A DNA stretch of 64,000 bases. Source: a bacterium. GTDB taxonomy: Bacteria > UBA10199 > 2-02-FULL-44-16 > JAAZCA01. The notes under the pieces were generated by a model. It was not told the DNA's origin. It saw only the letters and a list, made by a program, of their open reading frames with translations, and ran no database searches. The stretch lies in contig CAXXGI010000002.1 of NCBI GenBank assembly GCA_963674695.2, positions 832,001-896,000 on the forward strand, in the 5' to 3' direction. Below are positions 7,681 through 23,014 of the stretch, in pieces; position 1 is the stretch's first letter, and each line of letters begins with the position of its first letter. The translations under genes and the position numbers were made by a program.

Positions 7681-8044
7681 CTTGTTTATTTAAGAAATAA
7701 GTATTTTTCTGGATGATTCTAAAAACGGCCCTCATTTCAAGTGGTTGCCAGGGCAAGTTCTGTGTGCGTGATTGTCAAAAACCGCTGTAATCCCGTTGCT
7801 TTCCGTCATTCACTTAATCAATTAACCTATTCATATCTTCTGGGGAGAATATGTCAAACAATAATGTCGATTAGCGTAACAATATTAGCTGCATTCGGTG
7901 ATGGTCGTAAATGCATGATATTATACGACCTTTAAAAAATACCGTTTTCGATGGGGTAGTTTGGCGGTCGAAGAAATGAGGACACGCCATAAAAAAACCC
8001 GGCGGGGTGGCCGCCGGGTTTCATCCATCATTATAAACAATCGA

Positions 8045-8881
8045 TCAGAAGTGCCAGCCGAGCATACCCAGGAGCAGGAACTGCATCTTCATGCCGCCAG
8101 CGGTCACTTTCGTGTTGCGGGTCGTTCCGGCGGAGTCCGTCAGGTTGCGATAGAACGACTTCTGAAAGATGAAGTGTTCGGTCAAGTCGAGACCAACATA
8201 GAGTCCCTTCCAGATGAAGAATTCAACGCCGGCACCAACGCCGATGCCGCCGCCAACGGCGCCCACCTTGTTGTTGCCGTTGGGGGCGTTCACGAACAGT
8301 CCGTGGCCCACGCCGCCGAGTTTGGCATACGGGATGATCTTGAGGTTGTTCCACTGCCAGTTTGCACGCGTGAAGTAGGGGAGCGTGGCGCGACAGTAAA
8401 GGCCGAAGTCCAGGACGTGCTGACGCGCGTTTTCGACCGGGAACGTGCCGGCCGGGTAGGTGACGCCGTTATAGGTGGTTGCGGCAGCGGCATTTGCCGG
8501 GTCGCCCACCTGTGAGCTCGCCGTGGCATAGGTGATCTGCAACATCGGTCCGATCCAGTCGGCGATATCCCAACCGAAGGTGATGCCCATGGCCGGGTCG
8601 ATAGGTCCGTCAAACTTACGGCCCGTCACGCTGTGCCGATCGTTGGTGACCTGCATCATGCCGCCCGTGATGGTCAGATAGGGGCCCTTGTGCCAGCCCT
8701 TTTCCGGAAACTTCGGGTGATGCTTTTCGGACTTTTCGATGTCCTTCTGAACCTTCTCGACAGCCTGTTCCGATTTTGGCGTGGTGGACGTGCGGCGATA
8801 CTGCGACGAGATGGCCATCGCATTGCCGACAAAGGCCATCGAGACGACGACGATGACGGCGGTGAGCAGGATCTTTTTCAT
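8045..8881 (-). CDS. Outer-membrane beta-barrel protein (paralog of 5051-5701)
   Basis: Signal peptide MKKILLTAVIVVVSMAFVGNAMA, beta strands, C-terminal LGWHF; SD AGGAG; terminator-like hairpin at ~7990-8022. Confidence 0.75.
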   Translation of the reverse strand: MKKILLTAVIVVVSMAFVGNAMAISSQYRRTSTTPKSEQAVEKVQKDIEKSEKHHPKFPEKGWHKGPYLTITGGMMQVTNDRHSVTGRKFDGPIDPAMGITFGWDIADWIGPMLQITYATASSQVGDPANAAAATTYNGVTYPAGTFPVENARQHVLDFGLYCRATLPYFTRANWQWNNLKIIPYAKLGGVGHGLFVNAPNGNNKVGAVGGGIGVGAGVEFFIWKGLYVGLDLTEHFIFQKSFYRNLTDSAGTTRNTKVTAGGMKMQFLLLGMLGWHF

Positions 8882-9132
8882 GGGGTTATCTCCTATGGGT
8901 TTCGGTGTGTAGGCTCCATCTATCAGGTTGGGCGGGGGTGTCAACCCCCTGAAATCTGGCCTCAATTCGGAATAAGAAAATATGGACAAACGCCCCTATA
9001 TCCGCTAATAGCCGCGACTCGATTCGATGGTGGCTGTAGCTTCCGATCTCGCATGATCTTTCCGCGGGACAGCGGAAAGTCATCAGCGAGATCGAGACCC
9101 GCCAACGGTTTTTGGCGGGCTGAGCGTAACAT

Positions 9133-9210
9133 GGTGGCTGTAGCTCAGTTGGTTAGAGCGCTAGGTTGTGGTCCTGGAAGTCGAGGGTTCGAGTCCCTTC
9201 AGCCACCCCA
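9133..9210 (+). tRNA. tRNA-His(GTG) with G-1 and encoded CCA
   Basis: G-GTGGCTG/CAGCCAC-C-CCA; anticodon arm CTAGG-TTGTGGT-CCTGG; GTTCGAGTC. Confidence 0.96.
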
Positions 9211-9248
9211 AATAGAAAACGCCCCCTTTTGGGGGCGTTTTCTATTTG
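9209..9248 (+). terminator. Hairpin/terminator after tRNA-His
   Basis: CAAATAGAAAACGCCCCC-TTTT-GGGGGCGTTTTCTATTTG. Confidence 0.8.
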
Positions 9249-9257
9249 AGCTGGCCT

Positions 9258-9389
9258 TGGACTCGAACGTCCGCCAGAGGCGGACAGTTCGACGACCTTC
9301 CGAAGAGCCGCTCGCCGATTAGGCGAGCATTATAATGATGAAGTGTCGGCGAGTGCGTGCGCGAGCCGACGCCCCTTCAGCCACCCCAA
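9258..9389 (+). repeat. tRNA-linked repeat, copy 2, ending in a 17-bp duplicate of the tRNA-His 3' end
   Basis: CCCTTCAGCCACCCCAA at 9195-9211 and 9373-9389; body homologous to 6663-6986. Confidence 0.88.
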
Positions 9390-9560
9390 GTGATAACTGG
9401 TAGAACCGCAGCATCATCCTAGTCGAAGACGGATGATGCTATAAAAATGGAAGTGAACCGCCAGGGGCGGGGAATATATGACCATATAGGTCAGAACGAA
9501 GTGACAACCCCTGTTCTGATTCAATCGGGACGGGGGTCTGCCGCATCTGGAGCCCGAAAG
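9383..9560 (+). repeat. Cassette-junction repeat R1 (att-like core, spacer, hairpin module)
   Basis: ACCCCAAGTGATAACTGGTAGAAC ... GTCAGAACGAAGTGACAACCCCTGTTCTGATTCAATCGGGACGGGGGT..TGGAGCCCGAAAG. Confidence 0.85.
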
Positions 9561-9607
9561 ATCTTGTTCGACTGGCACTTTCCGCTCCTTTATCAGGGTT
9601 TTTCTTA

Positions 9608-9633
9608 GCAATTATTTGGTGATTATGCTGATA
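9608..9633 (+). promoter_or_regulatory. Degenerate GCAA(T)-N16-(T)GATA putative promoter
   Basis: GCAAT TATTTGGTGATTATGC TGATA, ~60 bp before the endonuclease I start. Confidence 0.35.
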
Positions 9634-9691
9634 CATGATAGAGACGAGCGGTCTCGGGGGCAGTGTCGGGTTGGAGGAAAGGGGAGTCAGT

Positions 9692-10693
9692 ATGCTTGCA
9701 GCTGGCCGAACAGTGTTCTCTCGGAGAGGGAGGCGCTTGCCGATGTGGTCGGCGTTTCCCGTAAGGAAATCCCAAGACGATCCTCCCGTGGGAAGCGCTC
9801 AGACGTACTATACCCAACAACTTCAAAACATTCATGATACCTACTGTTCAGCGGGAGTGTGTCGCTTGCCCCCGACGCCTGAAGGTTTGATGGCGTCTCG
9901 CGAGACGCGCCATGAGCTCCATCGGATTCTTGCGGGCATCCACGTCTTTTCAGGGAAGAAGGGTCAACGAGATACCGTCGTCAAAACATGTCCCATCATA
10001 GACGGTGCCAAGGCCATGTGTTATTCACACAGCCCTCTCAGTTACCGCGCGGCACGGAAAGTCCTCTTTGGAATGATCCATCTCAAGAAGGAGCCCGAAC
10101 CTGCGGAGCCCGGCAAGAGGTATTCCGTCAGAGATGTTTATTGTGAAAGGGATTATTATGAAAACATTGGGGTTGGTCCCGGAAAGTATCCCTCAAGCAA
10201 CGTGATCAATACCGAACATACCTGGCCACAGAGCCGTTTTCGTGTGTCCGGGGCGGACAAGTCATATCAGAAATCCGATCTTCACCATCTCTATCCAGCG
10301 AACAAGGAACGCAATTCCACGAGGGGCAATTACCCCTTTGGTGAGGTGGGAAGGATTGCTGAGAGGAAAAATCCAAGCTGCACCCTTTCAACGCTTGGGT
10401 ATCTCAGCGGTGGGGTCGAGCTTGGTTTTATGAATGGACAACGAATGAACGCTCTTTATTTTGAACCTCCCGACGCGCATAAGGGGAACGTGGCGAGGGC
10501 ACTCTTTTATTTTTCCGTCCGATATGAGTTGCCCATAGGAAACACCCAGGAACGCTTTCTTCGGAAATGGCATAAGGAGGATCCGGTCGATGGGGCGGAA
10601 AGAAGGAGAAATCAGATCATCTATGAAGCTCAGCACAACCGCAATCCCTTCATTGACACTCCCGAATTGGCCGACCTCATAGTTGATTTTTAG
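9692..10693 (+). CDS. Endonuclease I family (EndA/Bsn-type His-Me) nuclease
   Basis: INTEHTWPQS, SDLHHLYP, NSTRGNYPFG, FEPPDAHKGNVARALFYFSVRY, QHNRNPFID; start uncertain. Confidence 0.9.
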   Translation: MLAAGRTVFSRRGRRLPMWSAFPVRKSQDDPPVGSAQTYYTQQLQNIHDTYCSAGVCRLPPTPEGLMASRETRHELHRILAGIHVFSGKKGQRDTVVKTCPIIDGAKAMCYSHSPLSYRAARKVLFGMIHLKKEPEPAEPGKRYSVRDVYCERDYYENIGVGPGKYPSSNVINTEHTWPQSRFRVSGADKSYQKSDLHHLYPANKERNSTRGNYPFGEVGRIAERKNPSCTLSTLGYLSGGVELGFMNGQRMNALYFEPPDAHKGNVARALFYFSVRYELPIGNTQERFLRKWHKEDPVDGAERRRNQIIYEAQHNRNPFIDTPELADLIVDF

Positions 10694-10732
10694 AGCCTGT
10701 AAAACAGATCGTGTAACGGCTTAACCTTTTTA

Positions 10733-10752
10733 AGTCCGGGGACACGACACTT
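10733..10752. repeat. Short CCGGGGACACGAC repeat (degenerate copies at 14951-15018)
   Basis: agtccggggacacgacactt vs gttccgaggacacgacgctt (14968) and ccagggacatgagacttaatt (14998). Confidence 0.55.
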
Positions 10753-10772
10753 CACTCGTTAGGGTTCCATGA

Positions 10773-11684
10773 GTGCCCTCTCTCGTCGTCGACGCCCGTG
10801 CGCGTCTCGCGTGGGGATCGACCGCCATCGAAGGATGCACGCTTTCACTGGAAGCCGTTGAGGGGTTGCTGGAGGGCAAGGAGGCGGTCGGCTATCCGGA
10901 TCGCCATGTTCGGATGGCTCAGAACTATCTCAAGGCGCTGGTGTGGTTGCAGAAAAAGGGAAAGACGTCCCGCATTGCGGAAAAGGATGTTTTCCGACTG
11001 CATACAATCGTCGCGGCCGACGTTGTGGACGAAGGACCCGTTGGCGCCTACCGGCGAGAATCCGTGAGTGCTGGACTGTATGTTGCACCACCCTGGAAAA
11101 AGGATCCGGAACTCATGGAAGCCATGCTTGGGTGGCTCAATGGCCCGGCGAAGGCATTGCCGGCGGTTATCTCCTCTTCACTGCTTCATTTACGCTTTGT
11201 CGAGATCCATCCCTTTCGCGACGGCAATGGTCGTGTCGCTCGAGCCTTGGCGACGTGGGAGCTCTATCGAAAGGGATTCGACACGCTGCACATCTTTGCC
11301 CTCGATGAGATCCTGATGGAAAATCGGGCGTTCTACATCAAAAGCCTGCAGCGGGTACAGGTCGAAGGGGAAGATCTGGGTGGGTGGCTGGAGTTTATGG
11401 CGGAGTCGATTCTGGAAACGCTCGTGCGTATCGAGCGCCGAATGCTGGCGATCGGTCCGGTGAGTCAGGAACCGCTGGCGTTATCGGTTCGGCAGGAGAA
11501 GCTTTTGAATCTGCTGCGCGAAAAAGGAAGCCTGCCTGTGAGCGAGATAGCCAAAGCGCTTAAGGTGACATCACCCGGTGCGCATCACATCATGAGGCCG
11601 CTTTTGGAGCGCGGTTTGATCGATCGCATCGGTTCGCATCGATCGACACGGTATGCCCTCCCCACGAAAAGATCGAAAGCCTAA
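10773..11684 (+). pseudogene. Fic family protein with C-terminal wHTH, probably 5'-truncated
   Basis: STAIEG motif only 15 aa from the ORF start; canonical HPFRDGNGRVAR; in-frame TGA directly before the GTG (VP*VPSL) and no SD. Confidence 0.7.
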
Positions 11685-11689
11685 AATCA

Positions 11690-11850
11690 GTTCGACGATT
11701 ATCACGCAAAGCACCCCAAGTGATAACTGGTCGAACCAAAGACGCCCCCAGAGCGAGTTGCGAGCTGGGGGCGTTTTTGTCCTGAGCGACGAGCGAAGCG
11801 AGGAGTCGAAGGACCCCCATTTATCAATCAGGACATGGGTTTCCAGTTTA
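11690..11850 (+). repeat. Cassette-junction repeat R2
   Basis: GTTCGACGATTATCAC-GCAAAGCACCCCAA-GTGATAACTGGTCGAAC, then hairpin, a CCTGAGCG..GTCGAAGG REP-like insert and AATCAGGAC..GGGTTTCCAGTTT. Confidence 0.88.
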
Positions 11851-11935
11851 TAGGAACTACTCATCATTTGCTCCGTCGACAATTGACCGAAATTATTCCG
11901 TGACGTATGAGTTTCATTGGTGGGAGGTCTCACGA

Positions 11936-13156
11936 ATGACGATAGCCGAAGACAATCGAGCAGGTGGCACGCCGGAAAAGCCCTACAATCGAGGCCCGTT
12001 CAAGGGTCTGACGCCCAACGTCATCAAGTTGGGCATCGTGTCTTTCTTCGCCGACGTTTCGAGTGAGATGATTTATCCTCTAACGCCGATCTTTCTGACG
12101 ACCGTGCTCGGCGCGCCGATGGCCGTCGTCGGTCTCATCGAGGGTGTGGCGGAGGCGATCGCGAGCATCATGAAGACCGTCTCTGGCCGAATGTCAGATA
12201 GAACCGGCAGGCGAAGGCCATTTGTTTTCGTGGGCTATCTGCTCTCGGCGGTAGCGAAGCCTTTGATTGCGTTAGCGGGCGGATGGGCGCTGGTATTCGT
12301 CGCGCGCTTTGCGGACAGGTTCGGAAAGGGTTTGAGGACGAGTTCTCGCGATGCGCTCATTGCCGATTCAGTTGATGCGAAGACGAGGGGCCTCGCGTTC
12401 GGCTGGCACAGGGCGTTTGATACGATGGGCGCGGTTATTGGGCCGCTGCTCGCCATTCTCTGTGTCAAGTATGTAGAGAATTTGAGGTTTGTCTTTCTCT
12501 GGGCCCTTGTCCCCGGAATCATCGGTGCGCTCATCGTTCTCTTCGTGAAGGAGAGGCGAACCGCACTCGGTAGTGGTAATTCGACTTTTAAATTGAGTTC
12601 TCTGCCCACGCCATTTCGCAGGTATCTCGTCGCGTGGAGCGCATTTTCGATAGCAAATTCGAGCGATATATTTCTGATTCTCAAGGCCAAACAGGTTGGG
12701 TATTCAACTGCACTCGTCATCGCCGTATATGCGTTTTACAATTTGACGTATGCGCTCGCGAGCCCGTATCTTGGACATCTCTCGGACAAGATGGAACGAA
12801 AAAATCTTCTGGCGTTGGGGCTCATCGCCTTCGCCGCGGTCTATGTTGGGTTTGCCCTCGTTGTGCATCCGTGGCAAATGTGGGTTCTGTTCGGCATATA
12901 CGGCCTCTACATGGCAGCCACGGACGGTGTCAGCAAGGCCCTCGCGATCGACTTGGTTGAGGCGGAAGTCAGGGCGACGGCGGTAGGTGTAATGAGCACG
13001 TTCTCTGGTATCGCAGCTCTCATTGCAAGCACGGTGGCTGGGGTGCTCTGGAACGCCGTTGGTTCTTGGGCGGCCTTTGTCTATGGAGCGGTCGGCGCTA
13101 TCGTTGGCGCCATGATGCTTTTCAAGATTCCAAAAATTGTGAAGGCCTCTTGCTGA
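11936..13156 (+). CDS. MFS transporter
   Basis: VSFFADVSSEMIYP, GRMSDRTGRRRP (motif A), DRFGKGLRT, 12 TM pattern; SD GGGAGG. Confidence 0.93.
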   Translation: MTIAEDNRAGGTPEKPYNRGPFKGLTPNVIKLGIVSFFADVSSEMIYPLTPIFLTTVLGAPMAVVGLIEGVAEAIASIMKTVSGRMSDRTGRRRPFVFVGYLLSAVAKPLIALAGGWALVFVARFADRFGKGLRTSSRDALIADSVDAKTRGLAFGWHRAFDTMGAVIGPLLAILCVKYVENLRFVFLWALVPGIIGALIVLFVKERRTALGSGNSTFKLSSLPTPFRRYLVAWSAFSIANSSDIFLILKAKQVGYSTALVIAVYAFYNLTYALASPYLGHLSDKMERKNLLALGLIAFAAVYVGFALVVHPWQMWVLFGIYGLYMAATDGVSKALAIDLVEAEVRATAVGVMSTFSGIAALIASTVAGVLWNAVGSWAAFVYGAVGAIVGAMMLFKIPKIVKASC

Positions 13157-13281
13157 TCGATGACCAAGTAAGCATCCGGGCCTTGTTGATATGACGGAAT
13201 TTCTGATGTGTATTTGTCCGCCATGAGGTCGACGGAGGCGGTCCGGAGGCGTTGAAGACCCTCGGAAGGCGTCCTGAAAAA

Positions 13282-13520
13282 GTTCCTGAAATCGTTGCAG
13301 AAGGGACCCCAAGTGACAACCGGTAGAACTGCCGAGAATCCCTTAGCGAGAAGCTTGAGCGACGAGCTTAGGGATTCCGGCATCCTGAGCGAGCCCTTCG
13401 ACTCCCTTTGGTCGCTCAGGGTAAACTCCGCGAGTCGAAGGACCCCATTCATGAATCAGGACAGGGGTTTCCAGTTTCTGGAGCCCGAAAGCCCGCGTCC
13501 GACGGGTGTTTTCCACGATA
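13282..13520 (+). repeat. Cassette-junction repeat R3
   Basis: GTTCC..GGGACCCCAAGTGACAACCGGTAGAAC, REP-like insert, AATCAGGACAGGGGTTTCCAGTTTCTGGAGCCCGAAAGCCCGCGTCCGACGGGTGTTTTCC. Confidence 0.88.
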
Positions 13521-13666
13521 GCACCCAGGAAATTACGGTATTTCAATCGCTTGATCATGGTTCCAACATGCGATATCCAACGTTCGACCGCGGGAAACCA
13601 CGCGATGTGTCTCTGTTCTCCACAGAATCGAGAAGGGAGAGCATGCGAGCGTGAAATGAGGGTTCT

Positions 13667-14965
13667 ATGACGCGAATATGGTTCAGATCGTTTGTGGTCA
13701 TTGGGATGGTCGCAGTATGTGCGGGGGCATCGGGATGCCGCGGATGCACCAGTGGGGAATCACAGCGTGAATGGGCACAAAGCGCACTCAAAGCAGCTGA
13801 CGTGTCCATGGATGCGACGACCGTCGAGGCGAACAATGCCTTCGGGTTCGATCTTCTGCAGCGCGTCAGGGAAGACTCGACGGGGAATGTTATCTTCTCG
13901 CCCGTCAGCCTCTCCATTGCGCTGACGATGACGGCGGCGGGGGCGCAGGGGGGGACGCGGGATCAGATGCTCGAAGTCCTCCATCTGGGTCCCGATCTGG
14001 CGAAGGTCCAGGCAGAGTACCGAGCGCTACTCGCGCGGTGGGTGCTTTCCGAAAAGCCATATTTGCTGGAGGTGGCCAATCGCCTCTGGGTGGACCAGGG
14101 GTTTTCCCTCCTTCCTTCCTATCTCTCGCTGGTGGAAAACAATTTCGGTGCCGAACCGAAAACGCTGAACATCACCGGGAATCCCGAGGAGGCTCGCCGG
14201 GCGATCAACGCATGGACTAGTGAACAAACGCACGGTAGGATCGAGGATCTCATCCCGGCGGGGAATCTGAATGCCGATTCGCAGCTCGTTTTGACGAATG
14301 CCATCTATTTCTTCGGGGAATGGGCACGGAAGTTCGACCCGGACAGGACGAGAAACGAGGATTTCTATTTGGATGCTGCAAATCAAGTGAATGTTCCGTT
14401 TATGCACGAAACCAATCGCTATCGGTATGCCGAGACGGATGCATTTCAGCTGCTGGAGATGTCTTACAAGGGTGGGGATCTCTCGATGGTGATCCTTCTT
14501 CCGCGTGCGCGGGATGGGATCGCGGCTCTGGAGCGTGACCTTACGTCGATGTCGATCGAGCAACTTCTGGCGCAGGCGTCGATGAAAAAGGTCATCGTGA
14601 CACTCCCAAAATTTCGGATCGAAAAAGCATTCGGGCTAGAAGAGGTGCTTCGAAAGATGGGGATGGGTCTGGCGTTCAGCGGTGCCGCTGATTTCAGCGG
14701 GATGACGGGGGGCAGGGATCTGATGATCGGTTTCGTGAGACACAAGGCTTTCATCGATGTGAATGAGGATCGCACGGAGGCGGCCGCAGCGACCGCGGTA
14801 TCGATGATGCCGGCGGCTGCTCCTCCTCGACCGGAGCCGCCCATCGTCTTTCGTGCGGACCATTCATTTCTCTTTCTGATTCGCGACAGAACATCCGGGG
14901 CTATCCTCTTCCTCGGCCGCCTTGCAAATCCTCGGGGGGTGAAGGAAAAATTTCCAGGACACTAA
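13667..14965 (+). CDS. Serpin (serine protease inhibitor), putative lipoprotein
   Basis: NVIFSPVS, LTNAIYFFGEW, hinge EDRTEAAAATAV, FRADHSFLFLIRD..ILFLGR; lipobox-like GASGC. Confidence 0.95.
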   Translation: MTRIWFRSFVVIGMVAVCAGASGCRGCTSGESQREWAQSALKAADVSMDATTVEANNAFGFDLLQRVREDSTGNVIFSPVSLSIALTMTAAGAQGGTRDQMLEVLHLGPDLAKVQAEYRALLARWVLSEKPYLLEVANRLWVDQGFSLLPSYLSLVENNFGAEPKTLNITGNPEEARRAINAWTSEQTHGRIEDLIPAGNLNADSQLVLTNAIYFFGEWARKFDPDRTRNEDFYLDAANQVNVPFMHETNRYRYAETDAFQLLEMSYKGGDLSMVILLPRARDGIAALERDLTSMSIEQLLAQASMKKVIVTLPKFRIEKAFGLEEVLRKMGMGLAFSGAADFSGMTGGRDLMIGFVRHKAFIDVNEDRTEAAAATAVSMMPAAAPPRPEPPIVFRADHSFLFLIRDRTSGAILFLGRLANPRGVKEKFPGH

Positions 14966-15048
14966 TAGTTCCGAGGACACGACGCTTGTTCTGATCTCCA
15001 GGGACATGAGACTTAATTTAGTGCTCATCTCGGTCGTCATCGAGATCG

Positions 15049-15148
15049 CCTGCCCTGAGCGAAGTCGAAGGGATCAACAGCCCAGTACACGGATCCAGGG
15101 ATATCAGCTTCCCTGAAGGCTGAGCTCTTCGGCAAGCTCAGGACGGGC
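15049..15148. repeat. REP-like inverted doublet (CCTGAGC..GTCGAAGG type)
   Basis: cctgccctgagcgaagtcgaaggg ... cttcggcaagctcaggacgggc; related motifs inside R2 and R3. Confidence 0.6.
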
Positions 15149-15307
15149 ACTGTCGAATGGGGCGTACATTCTCGTCCGCGTCGTGAACCCCTGCATTTTC
15201 CTCAACCGATCACACACGAACGTCTGACGCTCCTGATCGAGAGTGCCGTTGAGCGCGGGTGGTACTTATCGATTGAACTATTCCAGCCAATAAGATAGAA
15301 TGGTTCC

Positions 15308-16501
15308 ATGAAAATAAAAAGGATGTATTTCAATAAGTTATATAAAGAATTGCGGGAACCGGAGATCTCCATTTTGCTCGGTGCGCGACAGGTGGGGAAA
15401 ACGACGTTGCTCGAACAACTCCATGCGAAGGTGACCAAAGCAGGGCTGAAATCGAAATATTTCAACCTCGAATCCTCGGAAGGGCTCATGGAACTTTCGG
15501 GCGATAATGCGGCGGTCATCAAAACGCTGATGGGAGCAGGGGATGTCGTTTTTATCGATGAATTCCACTATTTGAAAAATGCATCGAAGATTTTTAAAGA
15601 GATCTACGATTCGAAGAAAAAGGTGAAGATCTATGCCTCGGGTTCATCGTCGCTGGAAATCCATAAGCATTTGAAGGAGAGTCTTGCTGGACGTTTTCGA
15701 ACGACGATGATTTTTCCGCTGACACGTGAGGAGATGAGACAGTCCAAGATGGAGGTGCTGGATGTGTTTTTGAAGTGGGGTGGAATGCCTGGATTGTTGC
15801 ATCGGGCGAGCGACGACGACAAGATGGATCTGCTCAGCAATATCGTGAGCACGTACATCACGAAAGACGTCAAGGCGATGATTCGGGAGGAAAACGTACG
15901 AGCCTTTAACCAAATGCTCTATCTGCTTGCGCAGAATCAGGGCTCCCTCGTTGTGATGGCCAATATCGCGAACGCGACGGGAATAAGTCAAACGACCATC
16001 GCCGACTATCTCGAGATTATGTCACAGACGTATGTTTGCCATCCGGTGCATAGCTATTCGACGAATCTTGCTAATGAGCTAAAGAAATCAAAAAAATGTT
16101 ATTTGTTTGATGTGGGAATTCGCAACAGCCTTCTCAAGGATTTTGGAGAACCAGCCGAGCGAGGTGATCGGGGCGTTCTCCACGAAACGTTCGTGTATCT
16201 CAGCATGCTCCCTCAGCTCAAACCGAATATGGAAATACGGTTCTGGAGGACGAAGAAGGGGGATGAGGTTGACTTTGTTTTGATCAAGAACCGGGTTCCT
16301 GTGCCGGTCGAGGTGAAGTCGAGCGTAAAGGAAGCTTCCATTCCTTCCGGCATGCGGTCTTTTTTTCGAGCATATCCGAAGGCGCCGTTTGGCATCGTGT
16401 TTAGCGGTATTCCGGAGAAAACGGCTGACCATGAAGGAAAGCCTGTTTATTTTATGGGATGGGATCGGGCTGAGAATATCGAGTATTTGAATGATGTGTA
16501 A
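15308..16501 (+). CDS. AAA_14 ATPase with DUF4143 / PD-(D/E)XK-like C-terminus
   Basis: GARQVGKTT, FIDEFH, SGSSS, ESLAGR, KCYLFDVGIRN, EVDFV..VEVKS. Confidence 0.92.
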   Translation: MKIKRMYFNKLYKELREPEISILLGARQVGKTTLLEQLHAKVTKAGLKSKYFNLESSEGLMELSGDNAAVIKTLMGAGDVVFIDEFHYLKNASKIFKEIYDSKKKVKIYASGSSSLEIHKHLKESLAGRFRTTMIFPLTREEMRQSKMEVLDVFLKWGGMPGLLHRASDDDKMDLLSNIVSTYITKDVKAMIREENVRAFNQMLYLLAQNQGSLVVMANIANATGISQTTIADYLEIMSQTYVCHPVHSYSTNLANELKKSKKCYLFDVGIRNSLLKDFGEPAERGDRGVLHETFVYLSMLPQLKPNMEIRFWRTKKGDEVDFVLIKNRVPVPVEVKSSVKEASIPSGMRSFFRAYPKAPFGIVFSGIPEKTADHEGKPVYFMGWDRAENIEYLNDV

Positions 16502-16505
16502 CAGA

Positions 16506-16685
16506 TTCGACGATTATCACGCAAAGCACCCCAAGTGACAACCGCAGAGCGGAGCACATGCGGAGCGCATATAATTGAAGTGACCCGCCGTAGGCGGGGA
16601 ACAAGGATCCTTGGAGGTCAGAATGAAATGACAACTGGTAGAACCCCTGTTCTGATTCAATCAGGACGGGGGTTTCCAGTTTTTG
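16506..16685 (+). repeat. Cassette-junction repeat R4
   Basis: TTCGACGATTATCACGCAAAGCACCCCAAGTGACAAC (36/37 identical to R2) ... GTCAGAATGAAATGACAACTGGTAGAACCCCTGTTCTGATTCAATCAGGACGGGGGTTTCCAGTTT. Confidence 0.9.
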
Positions 16686-16914
16686 GGGGGAAGGTCAAAT
16701 GCGGTACGATGTGAAATGGAGAACAAGGAAAGAGCTGATCGAATCAGCGGGATGTTCTACCGGCTCAGGTGAGCCGGTAATTAGGAATCAACATCAGGAT
16801 CAACATCAACATCACCATCATTCACAATCAAAAATCAGAAGGCAATTGTGCGATGATATCGTGACTGCTGCACCTTACCCTCAAACGAATGAAGTGTTGT
16901 GAATCGCCCCGGGA

Positions 16915-17826
16915 TTATCGTCTTTGTTCATGCGAATCGACGCTGGATTGAACCAATCCCTCAACGATTCGATCAAGGGTCTCATTGAAAACAATCGGTT
17001 TCTCGAGCATCAGAAAATGTCCTGCATCGTCGATAAATGTAACGTTATAATTTTTGATATACTTTTTATTCGTTTTGACGTTTGTGGGATATATCTTTGA
17101 GTTGATAGAAAAAATGGGGACGCTGATGTGAGCAAAGTAGTCTGTAACCCTCCCTTTTTGGTACTCCCCCAGAAACTCCTCCATTGCACTTACGCCAACA
17201 TGCGGCGGAGATGATGACATATCCTCTGTTATCCAATCAATGAGTTTTGGAGAAGTGCTCGGCACAAACATATCTTTCAGGAAGGACTTGGTAGCCTTCT
17301 TGAAATCTTCTCTGAATGGCTCCAGCATCATCGTAAATACCTCTGACGTTACCGGATATGCAACATCCTGAATGGAATCGACTATTACAATACCAATCAC
17401 CCTTTCTGGGAGAAGGCTGGCCGTTTTTGCAGCTAATTCACCACCCATCGAATGTCCTATGAGGATAACTTTGCTCGAGCCAACTGAATCGACAACAGCT
17501 TTTACATCATCAGCGAAGGAGTCTATCGAATATCTTTTTCTTTCCAGACCTGAACGACCATGGCCGGCAAGATCGATTGTCACCACCTGATATTTTTTTG
17601 AAAAATAGGGAATCTGCTCTTTCCAATAATTGCCGTCGCAGCTCCATCCATGGATGAAAATTAAAGCGGGTTCTTTGCCTGAATACAATTCGTACGATAT
17701 GCGTACACCATCGGAGGAATCAACGCTCTTCACAACACCAACGTGCTTCTTGGATGAGCATCCAAAAGAGAACGATACCATCAATAAGATGCATATCAGA
17801 GCGATGGAGCGAAATGATTTTATCAT
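16915..17826 (-). CDS. Alpha/beta hydrolase, putative lipoprotein
   Basis: FIHGWS, DLAGHGRS, GHSMG nucleophile, AGHFLMLE; lipobox-like SFGC; AT-rich. Confidence 0.92.
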   Translation of the reverse strand: MIKSFRSIALICILLMVSFSFGCSSKKHVGVVKSVDSSDGVRISYELYSGKEPALIFIHGWSCDGNYWKEQIPYFSKKYQVVTIDLAGHGRSGLERKRYSIDSFADDVKAVVDSVGSSKVILIGHSMGGELAAKTASLLPERVIGIVIVDSIQDVAYPVTSEVFTMMLEPFREDFKKATKSFLKDMFVPSTSPKLIDWITEDMSSSPPHVGVSAMEEFLGEYQKGRVTDYFAHISVPIFSINSKIYPTNVKTNKKYIKNYNVTFIDDAGHFLMLEKPIVFNETLDRIVEGLVQSSVDSHEQRR

Positions 17827-18025
17827 AGAATGCCTCGTGACTTCCTTCTCATTGAGCTGCGCTGTATATGAGATGTGTTTCAAACTCAATGGTATTATGT
17901 GGCCATCTCTTGACAGGCAGTTCTGGAATCGTTCAACCAGCCAGCCATTGTGTTTTTTACGACGAAGCTCCATGGGAGCGTGGGAAGTTAGAACCATAAT
18001 GCCCCGCCGAATGGCGGGGGCGATG

Positions 18026-18120
18026 GATAACTGGTAGAACCCCTGTTTTAATTCAATCGGGACGGGAGTTTTCCGTTCATGAGGCCCGAAAACTCGCCTC
18101 CGACGGGTGTTTTCCGTGAT
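18026..18120 (+). repeat. Cassette-junction repeat R5
   Basis: GATAACTGGTAGAACCCCTGTTTTAATTCAATCGGGACGGGAGTTTTCCGTT..GCCCGAAA..TCCGACGGGTGTTTTCC. Confidence 0.85.
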
Positions 18121-18859
18121 GGTTATTTCGAGAAGCCAACCCGATGCATGGCTGGAGGAGATCGAGGGGTGTCGGGGAAGGGGTTTGACCGGTGTGGCAG
18201 GACCAGATCAGACCTATAGCGAATACGCTGCGGCCGCTACTGCCGAGATCTGTCCGAACGAGGATGTATGCGCAACGAAATACTATGAAAATGTGCTACG
18301 TCAGTATTCACAGATCTCTGACGCCAATTGCTGGCCGGAATTCCGGTTCAGCTATAGCGAGGGGCCTGCAGTAACGGCTTTTGCGTGGGCAGGTATGGGA
18401 GGTGTCACGCGTCCACTAGAGCGTCGCGCTTTTATGGAGTCTTTTCAAAACGGCAACGAGACATACATGCGTAGTTTTGATACCATCGTTACGGATGCCA
18501 TTGGTGATGATGGATCGGTGGAATGTAATATGCGGGTCGAGTTCCTTTTGGCGTTGGATGCGGTTTCGATCATTACTCCGGATGGAAGCGGACCACCTGA
18601 AGATTCGATCGGAGTTCCGGGAGCGAACATGGCCAAGGCCATTACACCGGGGACGGATCCGACTCTTCTCATTCCCGACGTTGGCGTTGCCTCCACGGTG
18701 CGCTCTGTTTTCAATACAACGATTACTTCAGTGCTGGGAACCGATGAGGCCACGTCTTTATGCCAAGCGCAGCTCGGCGAATCGAATGAACGCACACGGA
18801 ATGGCTTCGTATCGAAAGGGGCGATAGTTGCTGATACCAACCCGATTCCTTCGCCGTGA
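18107..18859 (+). CDS. Hypothetical Cys-containing protein, possibly a 3' fragment
   Basis: 250-codon ORF with protein-like composition; start lies within repeat R5, no SD. Confidence 0.45.
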   Translation: MFSVMVISRSQPDAWLEEIEGCRGRGLTGVAGPDQTYSEYAAAATAEICPNEDVCATKYYENVLRQYSQISDANCWPEFRFSYSEGPAVTAFAWAGMGGVTRPLERRAFMESFQNGNETYMRSFDTIVTDAIGDDGSVECNMRVEFLLALDAVSIITPDGSGPPEDSIGVPGANMAKAITPGTDPTLLIPDVGVASTVRSVFNTTITSVLGTDEATSLCQAQLGESNERTRNGFVSKGAIVADTNPIPSP

Positions 18860-19175
18860 AGTTTTGAGATGAATAAGTTTGTTCGAGTATAGATCCGATA
18901 CGGGGAATAAGTAAGAAAACCTCGTTGTTTAGGTCTAACTTATACTGAACCATATCAGTAAAACTGCCAGCGCATTCGCGTCTCAAATCGAGTCACAATC
19001 GAACAGAACAAACGCCACACCACTGCAACCGGGCTCATATGCGACAAATTGCGCCCCTCGCCTTCTCGCGTTTTCAATTCTGTTCCGTCTGATGGTTTTC
19101 TAGTCCTATCAAGCGCTCACCGGACGCCCGACCTTTCGCTCACAGGGCGAACTCGCTCGATTTCCAGAAACAGCA

Positions 19176-20498
19176 TTATCGTCGCAGTCGCAAAATCTGG
19201 TTCAGAGCAACGGCGAGCAGGGTGGCCAGCGTCAGCGAGGACTCGAAGAGGGGGGCAAGCCACATGGGGACATGGGCGTAGAGTTCGGGGAGGATGTCGA
19301 CACTCAAGCCCAGGGCGAATGGAACGCCGATGACGAAGATTTTTCGGGTGTCGATCCCGCTGCCGATGATGATCTGCAGCCCCGACAGGACCATGAAGCT
19401 GATGACGAAGATCAGGATCGCGCCCATGACCGGATCGGGCATGATCGAGATCAGCGACGAGAGCTGTGGGAAGAAGGCGAGCAGGATGAAGAGCGCACCG
19501 GCGATAAAGCCGATCCAACGGCTCGTTGCCCGCGTTGCCAGCGACATCCCGACGTTGCTTGCCGAGCTGTCGGTTGCCATCCCCCCGAGGAGCCCGGCGG
19601 AGATGACGCTCAAGCCATCGGCGAACAATCCGTTGCCGATGTTGCCGATGTTCGCTTCCTCCCAGCTGGCGTCGTTGGCCTTCTGGGCGATGACGAGATT
19701 TCCGAAGGTCTTGAGGCTTCCGCAAAGGGAGACGATGAGGAACGGGACGAGCAGCGACAGGTCGAAGGAAAATTTAAAATCGCTCAAGCCGCGGATGGGG
19801 CTGTCGACAAGCGGGGCGTGCATGAGGTTGTAGAGATCGACTGACGAGATGATGCCGAAGAGCAGCGAGAGGAGATACCCGGCCGCCATGCCGATCAGCA
19901 CGGAGTAGAGCTTGAGCCGGCCCCGGCTCATGACGTTGACCCCGATCATGATCGCCAGCGTGATCGTCGCCGTCAACACGACTGCGGGCTGGATGCGGTC
20001 GCCGGCGTAGTCGATGCCCACGAATTTCGACGCGCCCAGCGGAACGAGCATGACCGCGACCATGACGACGACGAGCCCCGTGATCTCGACCGGGAAGAGA
20101 ACGCGCAGCTTCGAGATGACGCGCGAGAAGAAGAGCTCGAACAGCCCCGCGACGATCGTCATGCCGCGCATCAGCGGCAGACCGCCGATCCACGCGGCGT
20201 GTACGGACACCGACAGGAAGGACGGTCCGCAGAGGTTGGGGACCAGGTAGCCGGATCCCACACACCCCCGGCCCAGCGACTGCAGGATCGTTCCGATGCC
20301 GGCCGCGATCATCGAGAGCGAGACGACGCTGCGGATCTCGGCGAATGATCCGCCGATCTCCTGCAGGATGACGACCGGGAGGATGAGCGTGCTCGACATG
20401 ACAAAGACGTGCTGAAGGGCGAGGACCAGCAGCACCGCGAGCGGGGGCCTCTCATCCACAGCATAGATCAGATCGTCTGGTCTTAGAACTTTTTCCAT
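19176..20498 (-). CDS. NCS2/NAT family (xanthine/uracil) permease
   Basis: YAVDERPP..LALQHVF, GIGTILQ, FPVEITGLVV, signature-like SASNVGMSLATRATSR, PDPVMGA. Confidence 0.9.
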   Translation of the reverse strand: MEKVLRPDDLIYAVDERPPLAVLLVLALQHVFVMSSTLILPVVILQEIGGSFAEIRSVVSLSMIAAGIGTILQSLGRGCVGSGYLVPNLCGPSFLSVSVHAAWIGGLPLMRGMTIVAGLFELFFSRVISKLRVLFPVEITGLVVVMVAVMLVPLGASKFVGIDYAGDRIQPAVVLTATITLAIMIGVNVMSRGRLKLYSVLIGMAAGYLLSLLFGIISSVDLYNLMHAPLVDSPIRGLSDFKFSFDLSLLVPFLIVSLCGSLKTFGNLVIAQKANDASWEEANIGNIGNGLFADGLSVISAGLLGGMATDSSASNVGMSLATRATSRWIGFIAGALFILLAFFPQLSSLISIMPDPVMGAILIFVISFMVLSGLQIIIGSGIDTRKIFVIGVPFALGLSVDILPELYAHVPMWLAPLFESSLTLATLLAVALNQILRLRR

Positions 20499-21397
20499 AT
20501 GGGATCGATGGCAAAGTAGTCGGAGCCGACGATATAGGCCGTGCCCTTCACGTCGACCCTTCGCAGATATGCGATCTTCTTGGATGGCCTGGTCTCTCCC
20601 GGCTTCGGCCACATGTAGCTGATCCAGGCCGTGTCCGTCGTCTTGAGCGCGTCGATCATCTCCTCGATGGTTTTTCTTCCCATGGCGTCCCTGAAGCCGA
20701 GCAGGTTTCTCCCGCTGCCCTCGCCTGCAAACGCCTTGAGGTCAGGCGAAGCGGGATCGACGATAACATGCCCGGTCATGTCGAGGACGAAGAGGTAGAT
20801 ATCCTTATAGACGAAGCGGCTCGACCGGTCGGCAAACACCGCAAACGCGGCCGTCCCTTTCTCTCGGATCAGGTCCACCGCTGCATCGACCGTTTCGACC
20901 AGGAACTGCCGCTCGGTGCGCATGTTGTAGATGCCGCTGCCGATGAGGACGTCCGTGCCGTCGAGGCCGGTTGTGCGCAGGACATACGAGCTCTTCCAGG
21001 TCGGGAGGAGGCCGCCCGGCTCGAGCCAGAGATAATGGACCCAGCCGCCCGGGTCGGAAGGATCGCGCGTGGTCACATCGATCATCTGCCGGATGATTGG
21101 CTTTCCCTCGAGATCCCGAAGGCTCAGGATGTTCTTTCCGACGAGGTCGGGGTTGAAGGGATCGAACAGGGGGGTGCCATGTATGTCGATGACGAAGAGA
21201 TAGTGGCTGTCCTCTTTCTCAAATTCCGCGAATGCGCGTGCTCCTTTCCGGGAGAAGAGCTCCGCGGCATCGTGAACGGAATCGATGAGTTCCTGCGTCT
21301 CCCGGAACTGGTACTTGTCCAGCTCCTCGTCTGCGGCAAGGGAGGCCGTCGGGAATGCGAGGACCAGCAGCATGGAAAGAACTCTGAATCGCATCAT
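20483..21397 (-). CDS. Exported tandem Cache (sCache_2-like) domain protein
   Basis: Signal peptide; two repeats YLFV.D..G..NxLxxRDxxG..IxxMI..WVxYxWxxPG..K.xY..IGS; no TM or output domain. Confidence 0.85.
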   Translation of the reverse strand: MMRFRVLSMLLVLAFPTASLAADEELDKYQFRETQELIDSVHDAAELFSRKGARAFAEFEKEDSHYLFVIDIHGTPLFDPFNPDLVGKNILSLRDLEGKPIIRQMIDVTTRDPSDPGGWVHYLWLEPGGLLPTWKSSYVLRTTGLDGTDVLIGSGIYNMRTERQFLVETVDAAVDLIREKGTAAFAVFADRSSRFVYKDIYLFVLDMTGHVIVDPASPDLKAFAGEGSGRNLLGFRDAMGRKTIEEMIDALKTTDTAWISYMWPKPGETRPSKKIAYLRRVDVKGTAYIVGSDYFAIDPIWKKF

Positions 21398-21467
21398 ATC
21401 TCCGAATCTCCGACCGATCATATTGAATGCGGCGGATTTTTGCAAAGTGCAAAAATATGCACGTCCA

Positions 21468-21520
21468 GAGGTTTTCCGTTTTTGGAGCCAAAAGGCCCGC
21501 GTCCGGCGGGAGTATTCTGC
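21468..21520 (+). repeat. Partial cassette-junction repeat R6 (distal module only)
   Basis: GAGGTTTTCCGTTTTTGGAGCCAAAAGGCCCGCGTCCGGCGGGAGTATTC aligns with the distal module of R3/R5. Confidence 0.7.
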
Positions 21521-21683
21521 GAGTGGTATGTCAAAATTCCCGCCCGACGTGTATGTTGGGGAGATCGGGGATGGCTGGAAGAGGGGTTCGATAGGTCAGA
21601 AAGGATGGTAGGGATGGGAGATGGGGGCTTCCCTATCGAGAGGTACGCTTTCCCAGTTTTTCGTAAAGATGGAGAAAAATGTA

Positions 21684-21709
21684 GCAACAAAAGGAGGTTG
21701 TGGTCGATA
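21684..21709 (+). promoter_or_regulatory. GCAAC-N16-CGATA putative promoter
   Basis: GCAAC AAAAGGAGGTTGTGGT CGATA, ~28 bp before the start codon. Confidence 0.55.
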
Positions 21710-21736
21710 GCAAGAGAGACCTGAGAGGAGAAGACT

Positions 21737-23014
21737 GTGGTCCAAGGGATGACAACACGGGGTTTGGTTCGGGAATTCGTCAAGGCTCATGATCGGGATC
21801 CCTCGAACAACGTACCTGAGCCGATTCCAGAGTCCCGGGTGAACGAGGATTTTGCCGATCTGTATTTGGCCAATGTCATCGGCTCTCTTGGCGCTTCTTC
21901 CGCCTCAGACTTTCATGAGGCCAACGCGGAATTCTTTAAATATCTTCCTCCGCCATGTCGTGCACGGGTGCTTACCTCCATTCATCGTAGCTGTGCGATG
22001 GTGAATGATTCAGCCTTCTGCAGGAATGAACGTTGGAACATGAGCTGTCTTACAGAGCAAGCTCCTGCTGATGTCGATGCTAGAGCGTTGAGCCGAGAGG
22101 ATATAAAAACCCTACACCATTTCTCTGTGTTGCAAGATCCAAAGGCGTTCCCAGCGATTTCAGCACAGGAAACATCGGCTGTTTATAAAAAGATTCAATG
22201 GCTCATCACGCGCTCTCACGCGGCAGGTCTGGAAGCGTTTGCCTTGCGATTGGAAGATCTTCTCAAACAAGGGCGCATTCGGTTGTTTGAAAACATGGAG
22301 GAACAGATCAACGCCAGTGGGTTTGTCGACCCACGAACTGAAACTGTTTATCTGAGCTGCTACATGTTTGAAGCTTCGTGGGCTGATGAAGCGGAGGTGT
22401 CTTCCGAAGACATTAGTGAAACAGAGCTGTTAGCCTATGCTCGAAAACAGCTCTCTATCGAATGGAATTTCCACTGCCCGGAATTAGAGATGGGCCAGCT
22501 AGAAAAAATTGCAAAAAAGTTTCCTCGCTTTCGACCGAAGGCGATTCAAAGAAAACTTCTCAATCAACGAAGAAAACAGCTCGCTGAACGCTATGCCTTC
22601 TACTATGGAAGCTTGGCTCGACATACTTTCCCCCCAGAGATGCCGAGCTGGTTGATCGGTGTGGCTCATGAGGTGCGCCACGTAGAACAATATGCTCAAA
22701 ATCGAACCAACTGGAATCCATCGTGGTTGAAGAAGACCTCAGGCGCCGATCAAGCATATTATTTCTCCTTGCTGACATGGGTTCTCAATCGTGCCTTTGA
22801 GGTGCCTCAGCAGATGATTCCAGGAGGCATGCTGTATCAGTCTTTACGGGAAATAGGTTTTGATCCGAGTCAGTCTGAATTTCAAATGGAGCAGAATTCA
22901 GACAGCATATCGTATCTCGTCAGAGCTTCCGAACGGGATGCAGCCCTTTATGGAGTCCACGTTGCCAAGAAGCTCCTTCCTTTTTGGCGGGCGAGCCAAA
23001 GAGAGGCGAGGTAA
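21737..23014 (+). CDS. Orphan protein with HEXXH (VAHEVRH) zincin-like motif
   Basis: 425-aa ORF, SD GAGGAG, HEVRH plus downstream SERDA; no signal peptide. Confidence 0.7.
   Translation: MVQGMTTRGLVREFVKAHDRDPSNNVPEPIPESRVNEDFADLYLANVIGSLGASSASDFHEANAEFFKYLPPPCRARVLTSIHRSCAMVNDSAFCRNERWNMSCLTEQAPADVDARALSREDIKTLHHFSVLQDPKAFPAISAQETSAVYKKIQWLITRSHAAGLEAFALRLEDLLKQGRIRLFENMEEQINASGFVDPRTETVYLSCYMFEASWADEAEVSSEDISETELLAYARKQLSIEWNFHCPELEMGQLEKIAKKFPRFRPKAIQRKLLNQRRKQLAERYAFYYGSLARHTFPPEMPSWLIGVAHEVRHVEQYAQNRTNWNPSWLKKTSGADQAYYFSLLTWVLNRAFEVPQQMIPGGMLYQSLREIGFDPSQSEFQMEQNSDSISYLVRASERDAALYGVHVAKKLLPFWRASQREAR

Follow-up and report, generated by a model that had tools for sequence, protein, structure and literature searches.

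The window, by which is meant the whole 64-kb stretch of bacterial DNA analyzed here (C2:832001-896000 of genome G000, which has 3.03 Mb, a G+C content (GC) of 58% and three contigs), carries an array of small gene modules directly downstream of a tRNA-His gene, from position 9211 to ~23125. The array is probably, though far from certainly, the product of accretion anchored at the tRNA, in which recombinase-free modules were inserted serially at the 3' end of the gene by a recombinase acting in trans. This reading is based on an attachment (att)-like site that is restricted to the locus, on the dyad symmetry and constant orientation of that site, on modules of foreign composition that vary among relatives with breaks at the hexamer ACCCCA, and on the lack of a recombinase in cis.

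According to the proposed mechanism, modules of 0.16-4.5 kb would enter one by one at the tRNA-His 3' end by conservative site-specific recombination, with the crossover falling within or next to AGC(C)ACCCCA(A). Each newcomer would land beside the tRNA and push the older modules outward; because the newest insertion would lie next to the tRNA, each module would keep its own junction at its distal end. Such a junction would consist of a left arm (RTTCKMAAATYATC...AAGC), ACCCCA, and then the sequence that followed the tRNA when the insertion took place, which may be either AnnGAYAACTGGTAGAAC plus a hairpin or a terminator at the beginning of an older module. The most concrete candidate for the helper would be a tRNA-His-specific member of a family of tRNA-targeting tyrosine integrases with three paralogues in G000 (Y3, Y4, and Y5), a candidate proposed because the repeat at the ends of the islands of this family (PA1) abuts tRNA-His repeats at both ends of the array. 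Insertion of this kind may still occur at present.

The tRNA-His anchor and the att-like site

The 3' end of tRNA-His, ...CCCTTCAGCCACCCCA, is the attachment point, and the gene is 100% identical over 81 nt to that of G006, a genome from another genus of the family. Its last 17 nt (9195-9211) are repeated at 9373-9389 and run directly into a 24-nt core, ACCCCAAGTGATAACTGGTAGAAC, as had been noticed in the first-pass annotation of this DNA. At ≤3 mismatches the core has three matches in the window (9383, 11713, and 13306), against 0 expected from 100 shuffles; the whole 3.03-Mb genome gave three forward, 0 reverse, and 0 control matches, all three at the tRNA-His locus. The same restriction was found with a site profile built from 20 distinct copies, the best 7 genome-wide matches of which all lie at C2:841-850 kb, the remainder having E > 6. 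The repeat is thus not scattered over the genome in the manner of repetitive extragenic palindromic (REP) elements.

The individual copies, R1 to R7, are listed in Table 1 together with the modules. The annotation had the core and its downstream modules recurring, after the first copy, at five places; R1-R3 carry the whole core, whereas the copy at 16506 is split, the one at 18026 is a right half, and the one at 21466 comprises the distal module only. The first 37 nt of R4 (16506-16542) are identical to R2 at 36 of 37 positions, and the site is then split by a 93-nt insert, which is a copy of the PA2 repeat. R2 and R4 do adjoin the stop codons of the Fic and AAA open reading frames (ORFs; ends at 11684 and 16501), the distance being 2-5 nt rather than 4-6. 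The downstream modules described as part of the repeat were only partly so: hairpin H1 and the distal module recur, whereas PA1, PA2, and a 160-nt repeat are separate families. Nor does the array end at 21520, since a seventh, decayed copy (R7) was found further out; it carries a core-like ACGGATATC ahead of the first part of PA2 and directly adjoins a choloylglycine-hydrolase-family gene (23134-24405, minus strand) at the 3' end of that gene.

Table 1. Coordinates of the anchor, repeat copies, and modules of the tRNA-His array (window positions), with places of gene-less PA1/PA2 copies in G000
Feature	Position	Strand	Description
tRNA-His (GTG), anchor	9134-9210	+	ARAGORN; Rfam tRNA 66 bits
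Module c0	9211-9372	+	gene-less 162-nt insert; bidirectional terminator hairpin (arms 9202-9226, 9231-9255) plus PA1 (~9277-9372)
PA1 arm repeat	~9277-9372	+	17 BLAST hits in genome
R1	9373-9406	+	perfect 17-nt tRNA-His 3'-end copy (9373-9389) fused to core ACCCCAAGTGATAACTGGTAGAAC (9383-9406)
Module 1	9390-11718	+	endonuclease I (9635-10693), Fic plus winged helix-turn-helix (10773-11684); ends in R2 left arm + ACCCCA; GC 53.5%
PA2 arm repeat, ~100 nt	9407-9508	+	three hairpins, direct GAAGTGA motifs; between TGGTAGAAC and CCCCTG; DNA fold z = -4.6
Hairpin H1 CCCCTGTTCTGATTCAATCGGGACGGGGG + distal module	9509-9587	+	repeat families D1-D3; recurs after R3, R4 (H1 only), R5, and at R6
R2	11689-11736	+	full 48-bp dyad-symmetric site AGTTCGACGATTATCAC-gcaaagcACCCCAa-GTGATAACTGGTCGAAC; DNA fold z = -6.5
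Module 2	11719-13311	+	MFS transporter (11900-13156); GC 54.6%
R3	13282-13329	+	left arm divergent, then ACCCCA + core
Module 3	13312-16535	+	serpin (13667-14965), AAA_14/DUF4143 ATPase (15308-16501); ATPase gene 47% GC
R4	16506-16644	+	left arm, ACCCCA, AGTGACAAC (16506-16542); PA2 copy (16543-16635); TGGTAGAAC (16636-16644); repeat family D5
Module 4	16536-18025	.	alpha/beta hydrolase (16915-17997, minus), 160-nt dispersed repeat (~16702-16862); gene 43% GC
R5	18026-18119	+	right half alone: GATAACTGGTAGAAC, hairpin H1, distal module; no left arm, no ACCCCA
Module 5	18107-21445	.	family-less ORF (18107-18859), NCS2 permease (19176-20612, minus), Cache-domain protein (20483-21445, minus)
R6	21466-21522	+	distal module alone; family D2, 79% identical to R3 copy
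Module 6	21737-23014	+	425-aa ORF; no Pfam, PHROG, or PADLOC family; no paralogue in genome
R7, outermost decayed junction, newly found	23020-23125	+	PA1 arm, degenerate tRNA-His 3' end CCCCTTCGGCCACC, TTAACGGATATC, first 14 nt of PA2
Gene-less PA1/PA2 places	C1:17545-18017; C2:658755-659300; C1:195057-195456; C3:434926-435748; C2:364508-364593; C3:722671-762; window 6683-6935

Full internal copies of the site, that is, those away from the tRNA, measure ~48 bp and consist of a left arm resembling the T-arm and acceptor of tRNA-His, then ACCCCA, and then AnnGAYAACTGGTAGAAC. In a MAFFT alignment the left arm corresponds to the T-loop and acceptor strand of the tRNA with a 4-nt insertion. It occurs as type A (AGATTCGCAAATTATCCGCTAAAGC before ACCCCA), to which R2 and R4 of the window belong, as type B (GCAGTTCGAAAATCATCCAGCCATCC before ACCCCA), and in a third form present in loci L028 and L034. 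Left arm and core of the full internal sites are mutually inverted (GTTCKA...TTATCNN // NNGATAA...TAGAAC): over 11 such sites 74% of the cells are complementary, against 19-51% with a slid partner. The covariation score is modest (0.129 versus 0.075 in shuffles) and was reached by 4 of 500 shuffles. In the tRNA-borne site the distance of the outer motif (GTTCKA / TAGAAC) from ACCCCA is 12 nt on either side, and in the cassette-borne left half it is 17 nt.

Besides the full sites there are 13 distinct further junctions that keep the left arm and ACCC(C)A and continue on the right into unrelated sequence, usually a bidirectional terminator hairpin. They derive from 17 places, two pairs of which are one junction on two loci, while one lacks the ACCCCA arm and one is the split site of L065. 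The left arms are ~80% conserved between genera whose housekeeping DNA is 67-70% identical. In Xer-dependent elements (IMEX, or dif modules) the junctions are dif-like XerC/XerD sites of 28 bp. A relation to these has low weight here: no dif of the proteobacterial type was found in the genome at ≤8 mismatches; a loose palindrome scan gave two weak candidates, and by eye the site has no convincing likeness to dif. A promoter-consensus scan was not clearly above shuffles (14 versus 9.1 ± 3.0).

Modules and their variation among relatives

The modules of the window are unrelated units on both strands with a base composition of their own, as the first reading had it: their genes have 43-58% GC against 58% for the genome, and Pfam bears out the gene calls (Endonuclease_1, Fic+HTH, MFS_1, Serpin, AAA_14+DUF4143, Abhydrolase_1, Xan_ur_permease, and Cache), two ORFs being family-less. 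Across all arrays a module has 0-3 genes, mostly 1-2. Part of the cargo resembles anti-phage defense in its protein matches: the Fic protein matches the PADLOC model SoFic (9e-44), the AAA_14/DUF4143 ATPase matches the PADLOC defense candidate PDC-S01 (9e-84), and L039 encodes, beside an AlbA_2-domain protein, a 1180-aa helicase with a full-length match to HmaA. At the DNA level the alpha/beta hydrolase gene shares 83% identity with a gene on G006:C23 that is there too bounded by site-like arms, whereas the housekeeping flanks reach 67-70%; this identity and the GC of the gene (43%, in a genome of 58%, while the genome of G006 has 45%) suggest recent transfer between genera. In G012 a 494-aa protein follows a site, and its C-terminal part is 40% identical to the ORF at 18107-18859. 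The ORF at 21737 was considered as a paralogue of the latter ORF or of the G012 flank gene, and comparison rejected this.

Relatives were taken from 13 genomes of the family and, with nine genomes from the three other families, 22 genomes of the order. G000 is the sole genome of its genus in this set, and comparisons are therefore between genera of the family. Further loci, designated by L numbers, include stretches fetched by exact-pattern scans of a genome collection (6 loci, 4 relevant) and a metagenome collection (15 loci); two Stappia matches of the former scan were taken as chance, as there was no tRNA-His in the fetched stretch. In G006 and G004, which belong to two further genera of the family, nothing separates tRNA-His from the core. 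Because of this, c0 of the window is regarded as an insertion. The tRNA is joined directly to the core in eight pattern-scan loci (L022, L023, L024, L026, L030, L033, L036, and L040, L023 being the G006 contig and L024 the G004 contig), while in the other relevant loci the copies are not at an intact tRNA, the tRNA of L020 being cut by the contig end. Internal copies occur in 8 of the 13 family genomes (G000, G004, G005, G006, G007, G009, G011, and G012). Among the nine genomes of the other three families one gave a match, confined to left arm plus ACCCCA, which may be its own tRNA-His.

The single orientation claimed for the window extends to these loci: all sites scored at E ≤ 0.1 are co-oriented with the tRNA within each locus (six in the window, four in L023, five in L035, four in L032, and three each in L014 and L020), while the intervening genes are on either strand. 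In G006 four co-oriented copies are clustered within 6.5 kb. The longest array, L035 1766-14695 plus L029 on one 40.9-kb contig, has at least six co-oriented sites and modules of 2.0-4.5 kb; there is no tRNA-His in the fetched part.

Gene content was expected to vary among relatives with breakpoints at the core, and between genera this is what was found. Over 1.9 kb, ending one base past ACCCCA, L020 and L023 have 91% identity; beyond this point they are unrelated. R3 of the window is 89.5% identical to the tRNA-His flank of G004 from exactly ACCCCA onward (13306-13391). L030 and L038 share 99.2% identity over 128 nt starting 4 nt before ACCCCA, to the left of which L030 has tRNA-His and L038 a type B arm; the difference between them is a recent gain or loss. 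In addition, G012 has one lipoprotein-like gene between the ACCCCA of the tRNA and a full site, and a TrmO-like gene and a methyltransferase occur in differing combinations in L020, L023, and L035. Where relatives have homologues of the Fic, MFS, and AAA genes (L005-L013), no site borders these genes within 1.5-kb flanks; the two site matches in these loci lie off those genes, one being the tRNA-His 3' end (L009) and the other a weak arm beside the G006 hydrolase (L005). Three of four public runs contain the locus (word shares 1.00, 0.92, and 0.79; 0.07 for a marsh metagenome). Their assembled contigs end at R1, R2, and R4, and the joints listed are short-sided or come from the low-identity run.

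Two observations on metagenome contigs may be added. L032, L035, and L039, which come from related metagenomes, are 100% identical in parts and switch partners inside the HmaA-like helicase gene (at ~3391, 11620, and 3242, respectively), a pattern that represents a deletion variant or an assembly chimera. L028 (9234-13673; L034 is identical), a contig with 42% GC, has a full site with the third left-arm type 3.2 kb downstream of a tRNA-Gln and no tRNA-His in the fetched 14.5 kb. Between tRNA-Gln and the site lie a 102-aa ORF, an HTH_3 ORF, and an HNH endonuclease gene; the first two are possibly a toxin-antitoxin pair, in which Pfam matched the HTH only.

Recombinases and the PA1 and PA2 repeats

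The 64-kb window contains no match to Phage_integrase, Resolvase, rve, DDE_Tnp_1, or IS110, in agreement with the earlier statement that neither a recombinase nor a transposase is encoded there. The recombinase expected beside some copy of the repeat did not appear either: no array contig of the 13 family genomes has a match to Phage_integrase (PF00589) or Resolvase. Phmmer searches with the recombinases of the genome itself (8 valid queries, the Xer-like Y1 being left out) found none in the window or in L014-L040, and Pfam found none among the flanking ORFs, in one scan among the matches listed (25 of 81 families). In all, ~25 site-bounded modules in ~12 distinct loci carry no tyrosine or serine recombinase, not even a fragment. 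Several ORFs were tried as hidden recombinases (21737-23014, 18107-18859, the 494-aa and a 392-aa ORF of G012, and two ORFs of G006) but none could be assigned to a PHROG, Pfam, or PADLOC family. In G004, G006, and G007 the searches found no large serine recombinase.

Neither the 22 order genomes, at tRNA-His, nor two scans of viral contigs yielded an autonomous element that pairs an integrase with the same att site. In the viral contigs the type A arm had 0 matches. The type B arm had one, ~6 kb from the integrase of that record if the record is circular; it reads as coding sequence, lacks the ACCCCA geometry, and was taken as chance.

PA1 and PA2 are ~100-nt hairpin-rich repeats that do not form part of the att-like site. 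Of the PA1 hits in the genome, 13 lie within 460 nt downstream of a tRNA gene, one at 23053-23087, and one elsewhere; PA1 also stands at the far end of a 15.7-kb tRNA-Met island that carries integrase Y4, where it is followed directly by the 12-nt tRNA-Met 3' repeat. The PA1 of the window is 83% identical to this distal (attR-side) end. The 9 hits of PA2 are at tRNA-Gln, at tRNA-Ser, in this array, and at the distal end of both the tRNA-Ala/Y5 and the tRNA-Met/Y4 island; its copy at 9407-9508 is regarded as an insertion because R5 shows the uninterrupted sequence. Taken together, 19 of the 26 hits of PA1 and PA2 fall within 521 nt downstream of a tRNA, although the stretches up to 1.5 kb behind tRNA genes make up just ~2% of the genome, and 5 further hits are in this array or at the far ends of the two tRNA-anchored islands. 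R1, the perfect innermost junction, and R7, the decayed outermost one, are junctions of the Y4-island type. The integrases Y3, Y4, and Y5 of G000 are phage-type paralogues with 44-61% mutual identity; relatives of this family adjoin tRNA-Met, tRNA-Ala, tRNA-Gly, and tRNA-Arg, and none adjoins tRNA-His.

The islands themselves are as follows. The tRNA-Met island (C1:336679-352540, 15.7 kb) encodes Y4 and a resolvase-type protein, S1, and has the 12-nt 3' repeat. The tRNA-Ala island (C1:731100-748467, ~17 kb) encodes Y5 and the resolvase-type S3, and has at its far end the 3' end of a different tRNA-Ala acceptor sequence. Y3, the remaining paralogue, is accompanied by S2 and does not adjoin a tRNA. 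PA1 and/or PA2 also occur as gene-less copies behind tRNA-Gln, Ser-gga, Gly-ccc, Met, Ser-gct, Glu, and Arg-tct. Some of these are tandem: tRNA-Ser is followed by three copies of a 193-nt unit and tRNA-Gly by 77-nt units. In three places, namely tRNA-Gln, tRNA-Ser, and the distal end of the tRNA-Ala island, PA2 lies inside the T-loop-like GGTTCGAA YCC of a partial tRNA copy. The gene-less copies look like att-only scars or miniature integrative elements.

Known systems and competing explanations

In an integron, recombinase-free cassettes of 1-2 genes, each with most of its site at the distal end, are collected at a fixed attachment point, the newest beside the anchor. The locus described here is similar in its fixed anchor, its recombinase-free units of 1-2 genes, the distal position and single orientation of the site, and the place of the newest unit. 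However, neither the window nor the array contigs contain an IntI gene, there is no attI/Pc platform, and, unlike the co-oriented promoterless cassettes of integrons, the genes lie on both strands, have terminator-like hairpins of their own, and probably have their own promoters. The attC site consists of imperfect inverted repeats (R''-L''...L'-R') that fold as a hairpin and has a GTTRRRY core; the junction here is a pseudo-tRNA arm, ACCCCA, and the core, with dyad symmetry and without GTTRRRY. The integron analogue without attC that was first proposed therefore stands as a functional analogy, whereas the defining features of integrons are absent and the pattern matches tandem accretion as already described. 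The att sites of large serine integrases are ~44-48 bp long, with imperfect dyad symmetry and a 5-bp offset between the half-sites of attB and attP. The symmetric site of 44-48 bp is similar, and its outer-motif spacings of 12 and 17 nt recall that offset, but many junctions have no recognizable right half-site.

Serial accretion at tRNA or tmRNA genes is in print (PMC3146451, PMC5704250, 10.1101/2020.12.28.424599). The ssrA islands of Dehalococcoides are tandem islands, 15 without an integration module and 16 with a serine-recombinase module, the module-less ones being proposed to be cis-mobilizable (McMurdie et al. 2011, PMC3146451). Like the present array, they lie downstream of a small RNA gene, are bounded by direct repeats of its 3' end, vary in content, and show, immediately before the repeat, a conserved motif that cannot be aligned to the gene; their target is the tmRNA rather than tRNA-His, and modules of 0.16-4.5 kb, 0 of ~25 with a recombinase, and a 48-bp dyad-symmetric site distinguish the locus studied here from those islands (PMC3146451). 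Cis-mobilizable elements (CIMEs) lack integration and transfer genes, keep attL and attR, and are stacked in tandem by accretion at the 3' end of the target (PMC5704250). The modules resemble them in their one-orientation direct repeats of the target 3' end and in the absence of such genes. A CIME is defined there by a known parent with the same att sites, either an integrative and conjugative element (ICE) or an integrative and mobilizable element (IME) (PMC5704250), whereas no tRNA-His-specific parent was found here, and the modules look uniformly minimal rather than variously decayed. The tycheposon islands of Prochlorococcus are likewise tRNA-anchored and variable, with partial tRNA repeats and adaptive or defensive cargo; newcomers shift older elements further into the island, and tycheposons encode a tyrosine or large serine recombinase of their own, often together with replication genes (bioRxiv 10.1101/2020.12.28.424599), whereas no recombinase-bearing element was seen at this tRNA-His. 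The locus thus differs from described accretion in its uniformly small modules, recombinase-free in ~25 cases, in a long dyad-symmetric site that is conserved between genera, and in the lack of a cognate autonomous element.

Trans-acting serial capture at tRNA-His, as the first-pass annotation had proposed, is in line with the att-type junctions, the variable content, the breaks at ACCCCA, and the absence of a cis recombinase; the recombinase itself was not found. Several results weigh against it. The left arms are conserved in a form unable to serve as a tRNA 3' end, a feature not expected from a simple model of displaced tRNA ends. Not every boundary is an intact site, as R5 and R6 lack the left arm and ACCCCA, and not every homology ends at one: that of L023 and L035 stops at a gene end, and L032 and L039 break inside the helicase gene. 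Among the assembled contigs of the four runs, which break at repeats, no circular or empty-site form was seen. As for the helper, a tie to the Y3-Y5 family through PA1 exists for R1 and R7 alone and is lacking for arms of types A and B; no integrase adjoins tRNA-His in the 22 genomes of the order; and the family was not found at E ≤ 1e-20 in G004, G005, G007, G009, or G012, all of which have modules. Moreover, the tyrosine recombinases found in G004 and G007 are all Xer-like, and a serine recombinase was not found there; this absence weighs little, as both are metagenome-assembled genomes (MAGs) with 94-96% completeness, whose mobile elements may have escaped binning.

A stronger version, which we regard as unlikely, is that the locus is a dedicated platform for cassette exchange and not a graveyard of decayed islands: the cassettes would never have carried a recombinase, would circulate among genera of the family, and would function as an integron without IntI and attC. 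The tRNA-His 3' end plus AnnGAYAACTGGTAGAAC would then be a 44-bp symmetric attB, and the 48-bp site of the cassettes, with its outer motif 5 nt further out, would relate to it as attP does to attB in large serine integrases. The cassettes, many with anti-phage genes, would be inserted beside the tRNA by a recombinase encoded elsewhere, possibly of an unrecognized kind, because two array-bearing genomes show only Xer-type enzymes.

Equally improbable, in our estimate, is that the modules are fossil scars, that is, islands left after loss of their integration genes in a fixed array in which nothing moves today. The structure of c0, a terminator plus a PA1 arm, is that of two island ends with nothing between; R7 is a similar structure in decay, truncation is seen at R5 and R6, and other tRNAs of the genome carry similar gene-less PA1/PA2 scars. 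The assembled run contigs, which break at repeats, contain no joint at a core, and the CIME model combines decay with accretion (PMC5704250). However, ~25 modules in ~12 loci keep no recombinase fragment, whereas 16 of the 31 Dehalococcoides ssrA islands keep an integration module (PMC3146451). The conservation of the left arms above that of housekeeping DNA also argues against scars, as does the recent gain or loss seen between L030 and L038, which are 99% identical to the right of ACCCCA and different to the left. If the array is only a fossil, it represents ordinary, if tidy, island accretion.

We consider it less probable still that no dedicated recombinase is involved and that RecA-dependent homologous recombination acted on repeats of 50-200 nt copied from the native downstream region of tRNA-His. 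The right arm, hairpin, and distal module are common to many boundaries over up to ~200 nt, the position of PA2 with respect to the core differs between R1 and R4, in the manner of an exchange between similar 10-mers, and no recombinase was found on the array contigs. Against this stand breaks that are sharp at ACCCCA instead of spread, the 13 junctions with a conserved left arm and an unrelated right side, the recombinase-like dyad symmetry of the site, and repeats that are just 60-97% identical to one another within the window.

It is very unlikely that the site is an RNA-level element, in which a tRNA-like 3' end plus terminator punctuates or stabilizes transcripts and the position of the copies is due to expression and not to mobility. 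A hairpin, often with a T run, comes after nearly every ACCCCA, and sites begin a few nt past stop codons; but the orientation of the sites follows the tRNA and not the neighboring gene, several flanking genes being on the opposite strand, and an Rfam search at E ≤ 1 over 6000-24000 gave only three tRNAs above the gathering score, with no family and no partial tRNA at the internal sites. Furthermore, the count of terminator-like structures in the region is not clearly above shuffles (21 versus 14.5 ± 3.6), and variable gene content with breaks at ACCCCA would be left unexplained. An ordinary dispersed repeat of the REP or miniature inverted-repeat transposable element (MITE) type, dense here by chance, is hardly credible: the inner pieces are dispersed (17 BLAST hits for PA1, 9 for PA2, >10 copies of the 160-nt repeat), but the idea is largely refuted for the site, as arm, ACCCCA, and core have no copy outside the tRNA-His locus, and PA1 and PA2 are themselves distributed non-randomly with respect to tRNAs.

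If the accretion modules are indeed mobilized in trans, they would represent a second route, besides integrons, for filing single genes at a fixed chromosomal address, here a tRNA gene, in a bacterial family for which nearly all knowledge comes from metagenome-assembled genomes. Given the matches of several modules to defense models or candidates, the locus is a compact hotspot of defense and accessory genes with recognizable borders, the cassettes of which are easy to find in metagenomes, and the 48-bp site and the conserved 44-bp tRNA-His site offer concrete substrates for finding the recombinase. From PA1 and PA2, in turn, it seems that many tRNA genes in G000 bear gene-less, att-only scars of a single integrase family.

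Other repeats and a neighboring gene complete the description of the region. The 160-nt repeat (16702-16862), which is unrelated to the att-like site, has >10 copies over all three contigs with 72-88% identity and is probably a MITE. The gene for a flavin adenine dinucleotide-dependent protein (24468-26015), next past the choloylglycine-hydrolase-family gene, has 82% DNA identity to G006, against 67-70% for the other flanks. Just after tRNA-Arg(tct), a 147-nt repeat (6735-6881) has copies with 87-93% identity at C3:940940, C1:315210, C3:435765, C3:587729, and C3:167174, two of which are beside tRNA-Met and tRNA-Gly.

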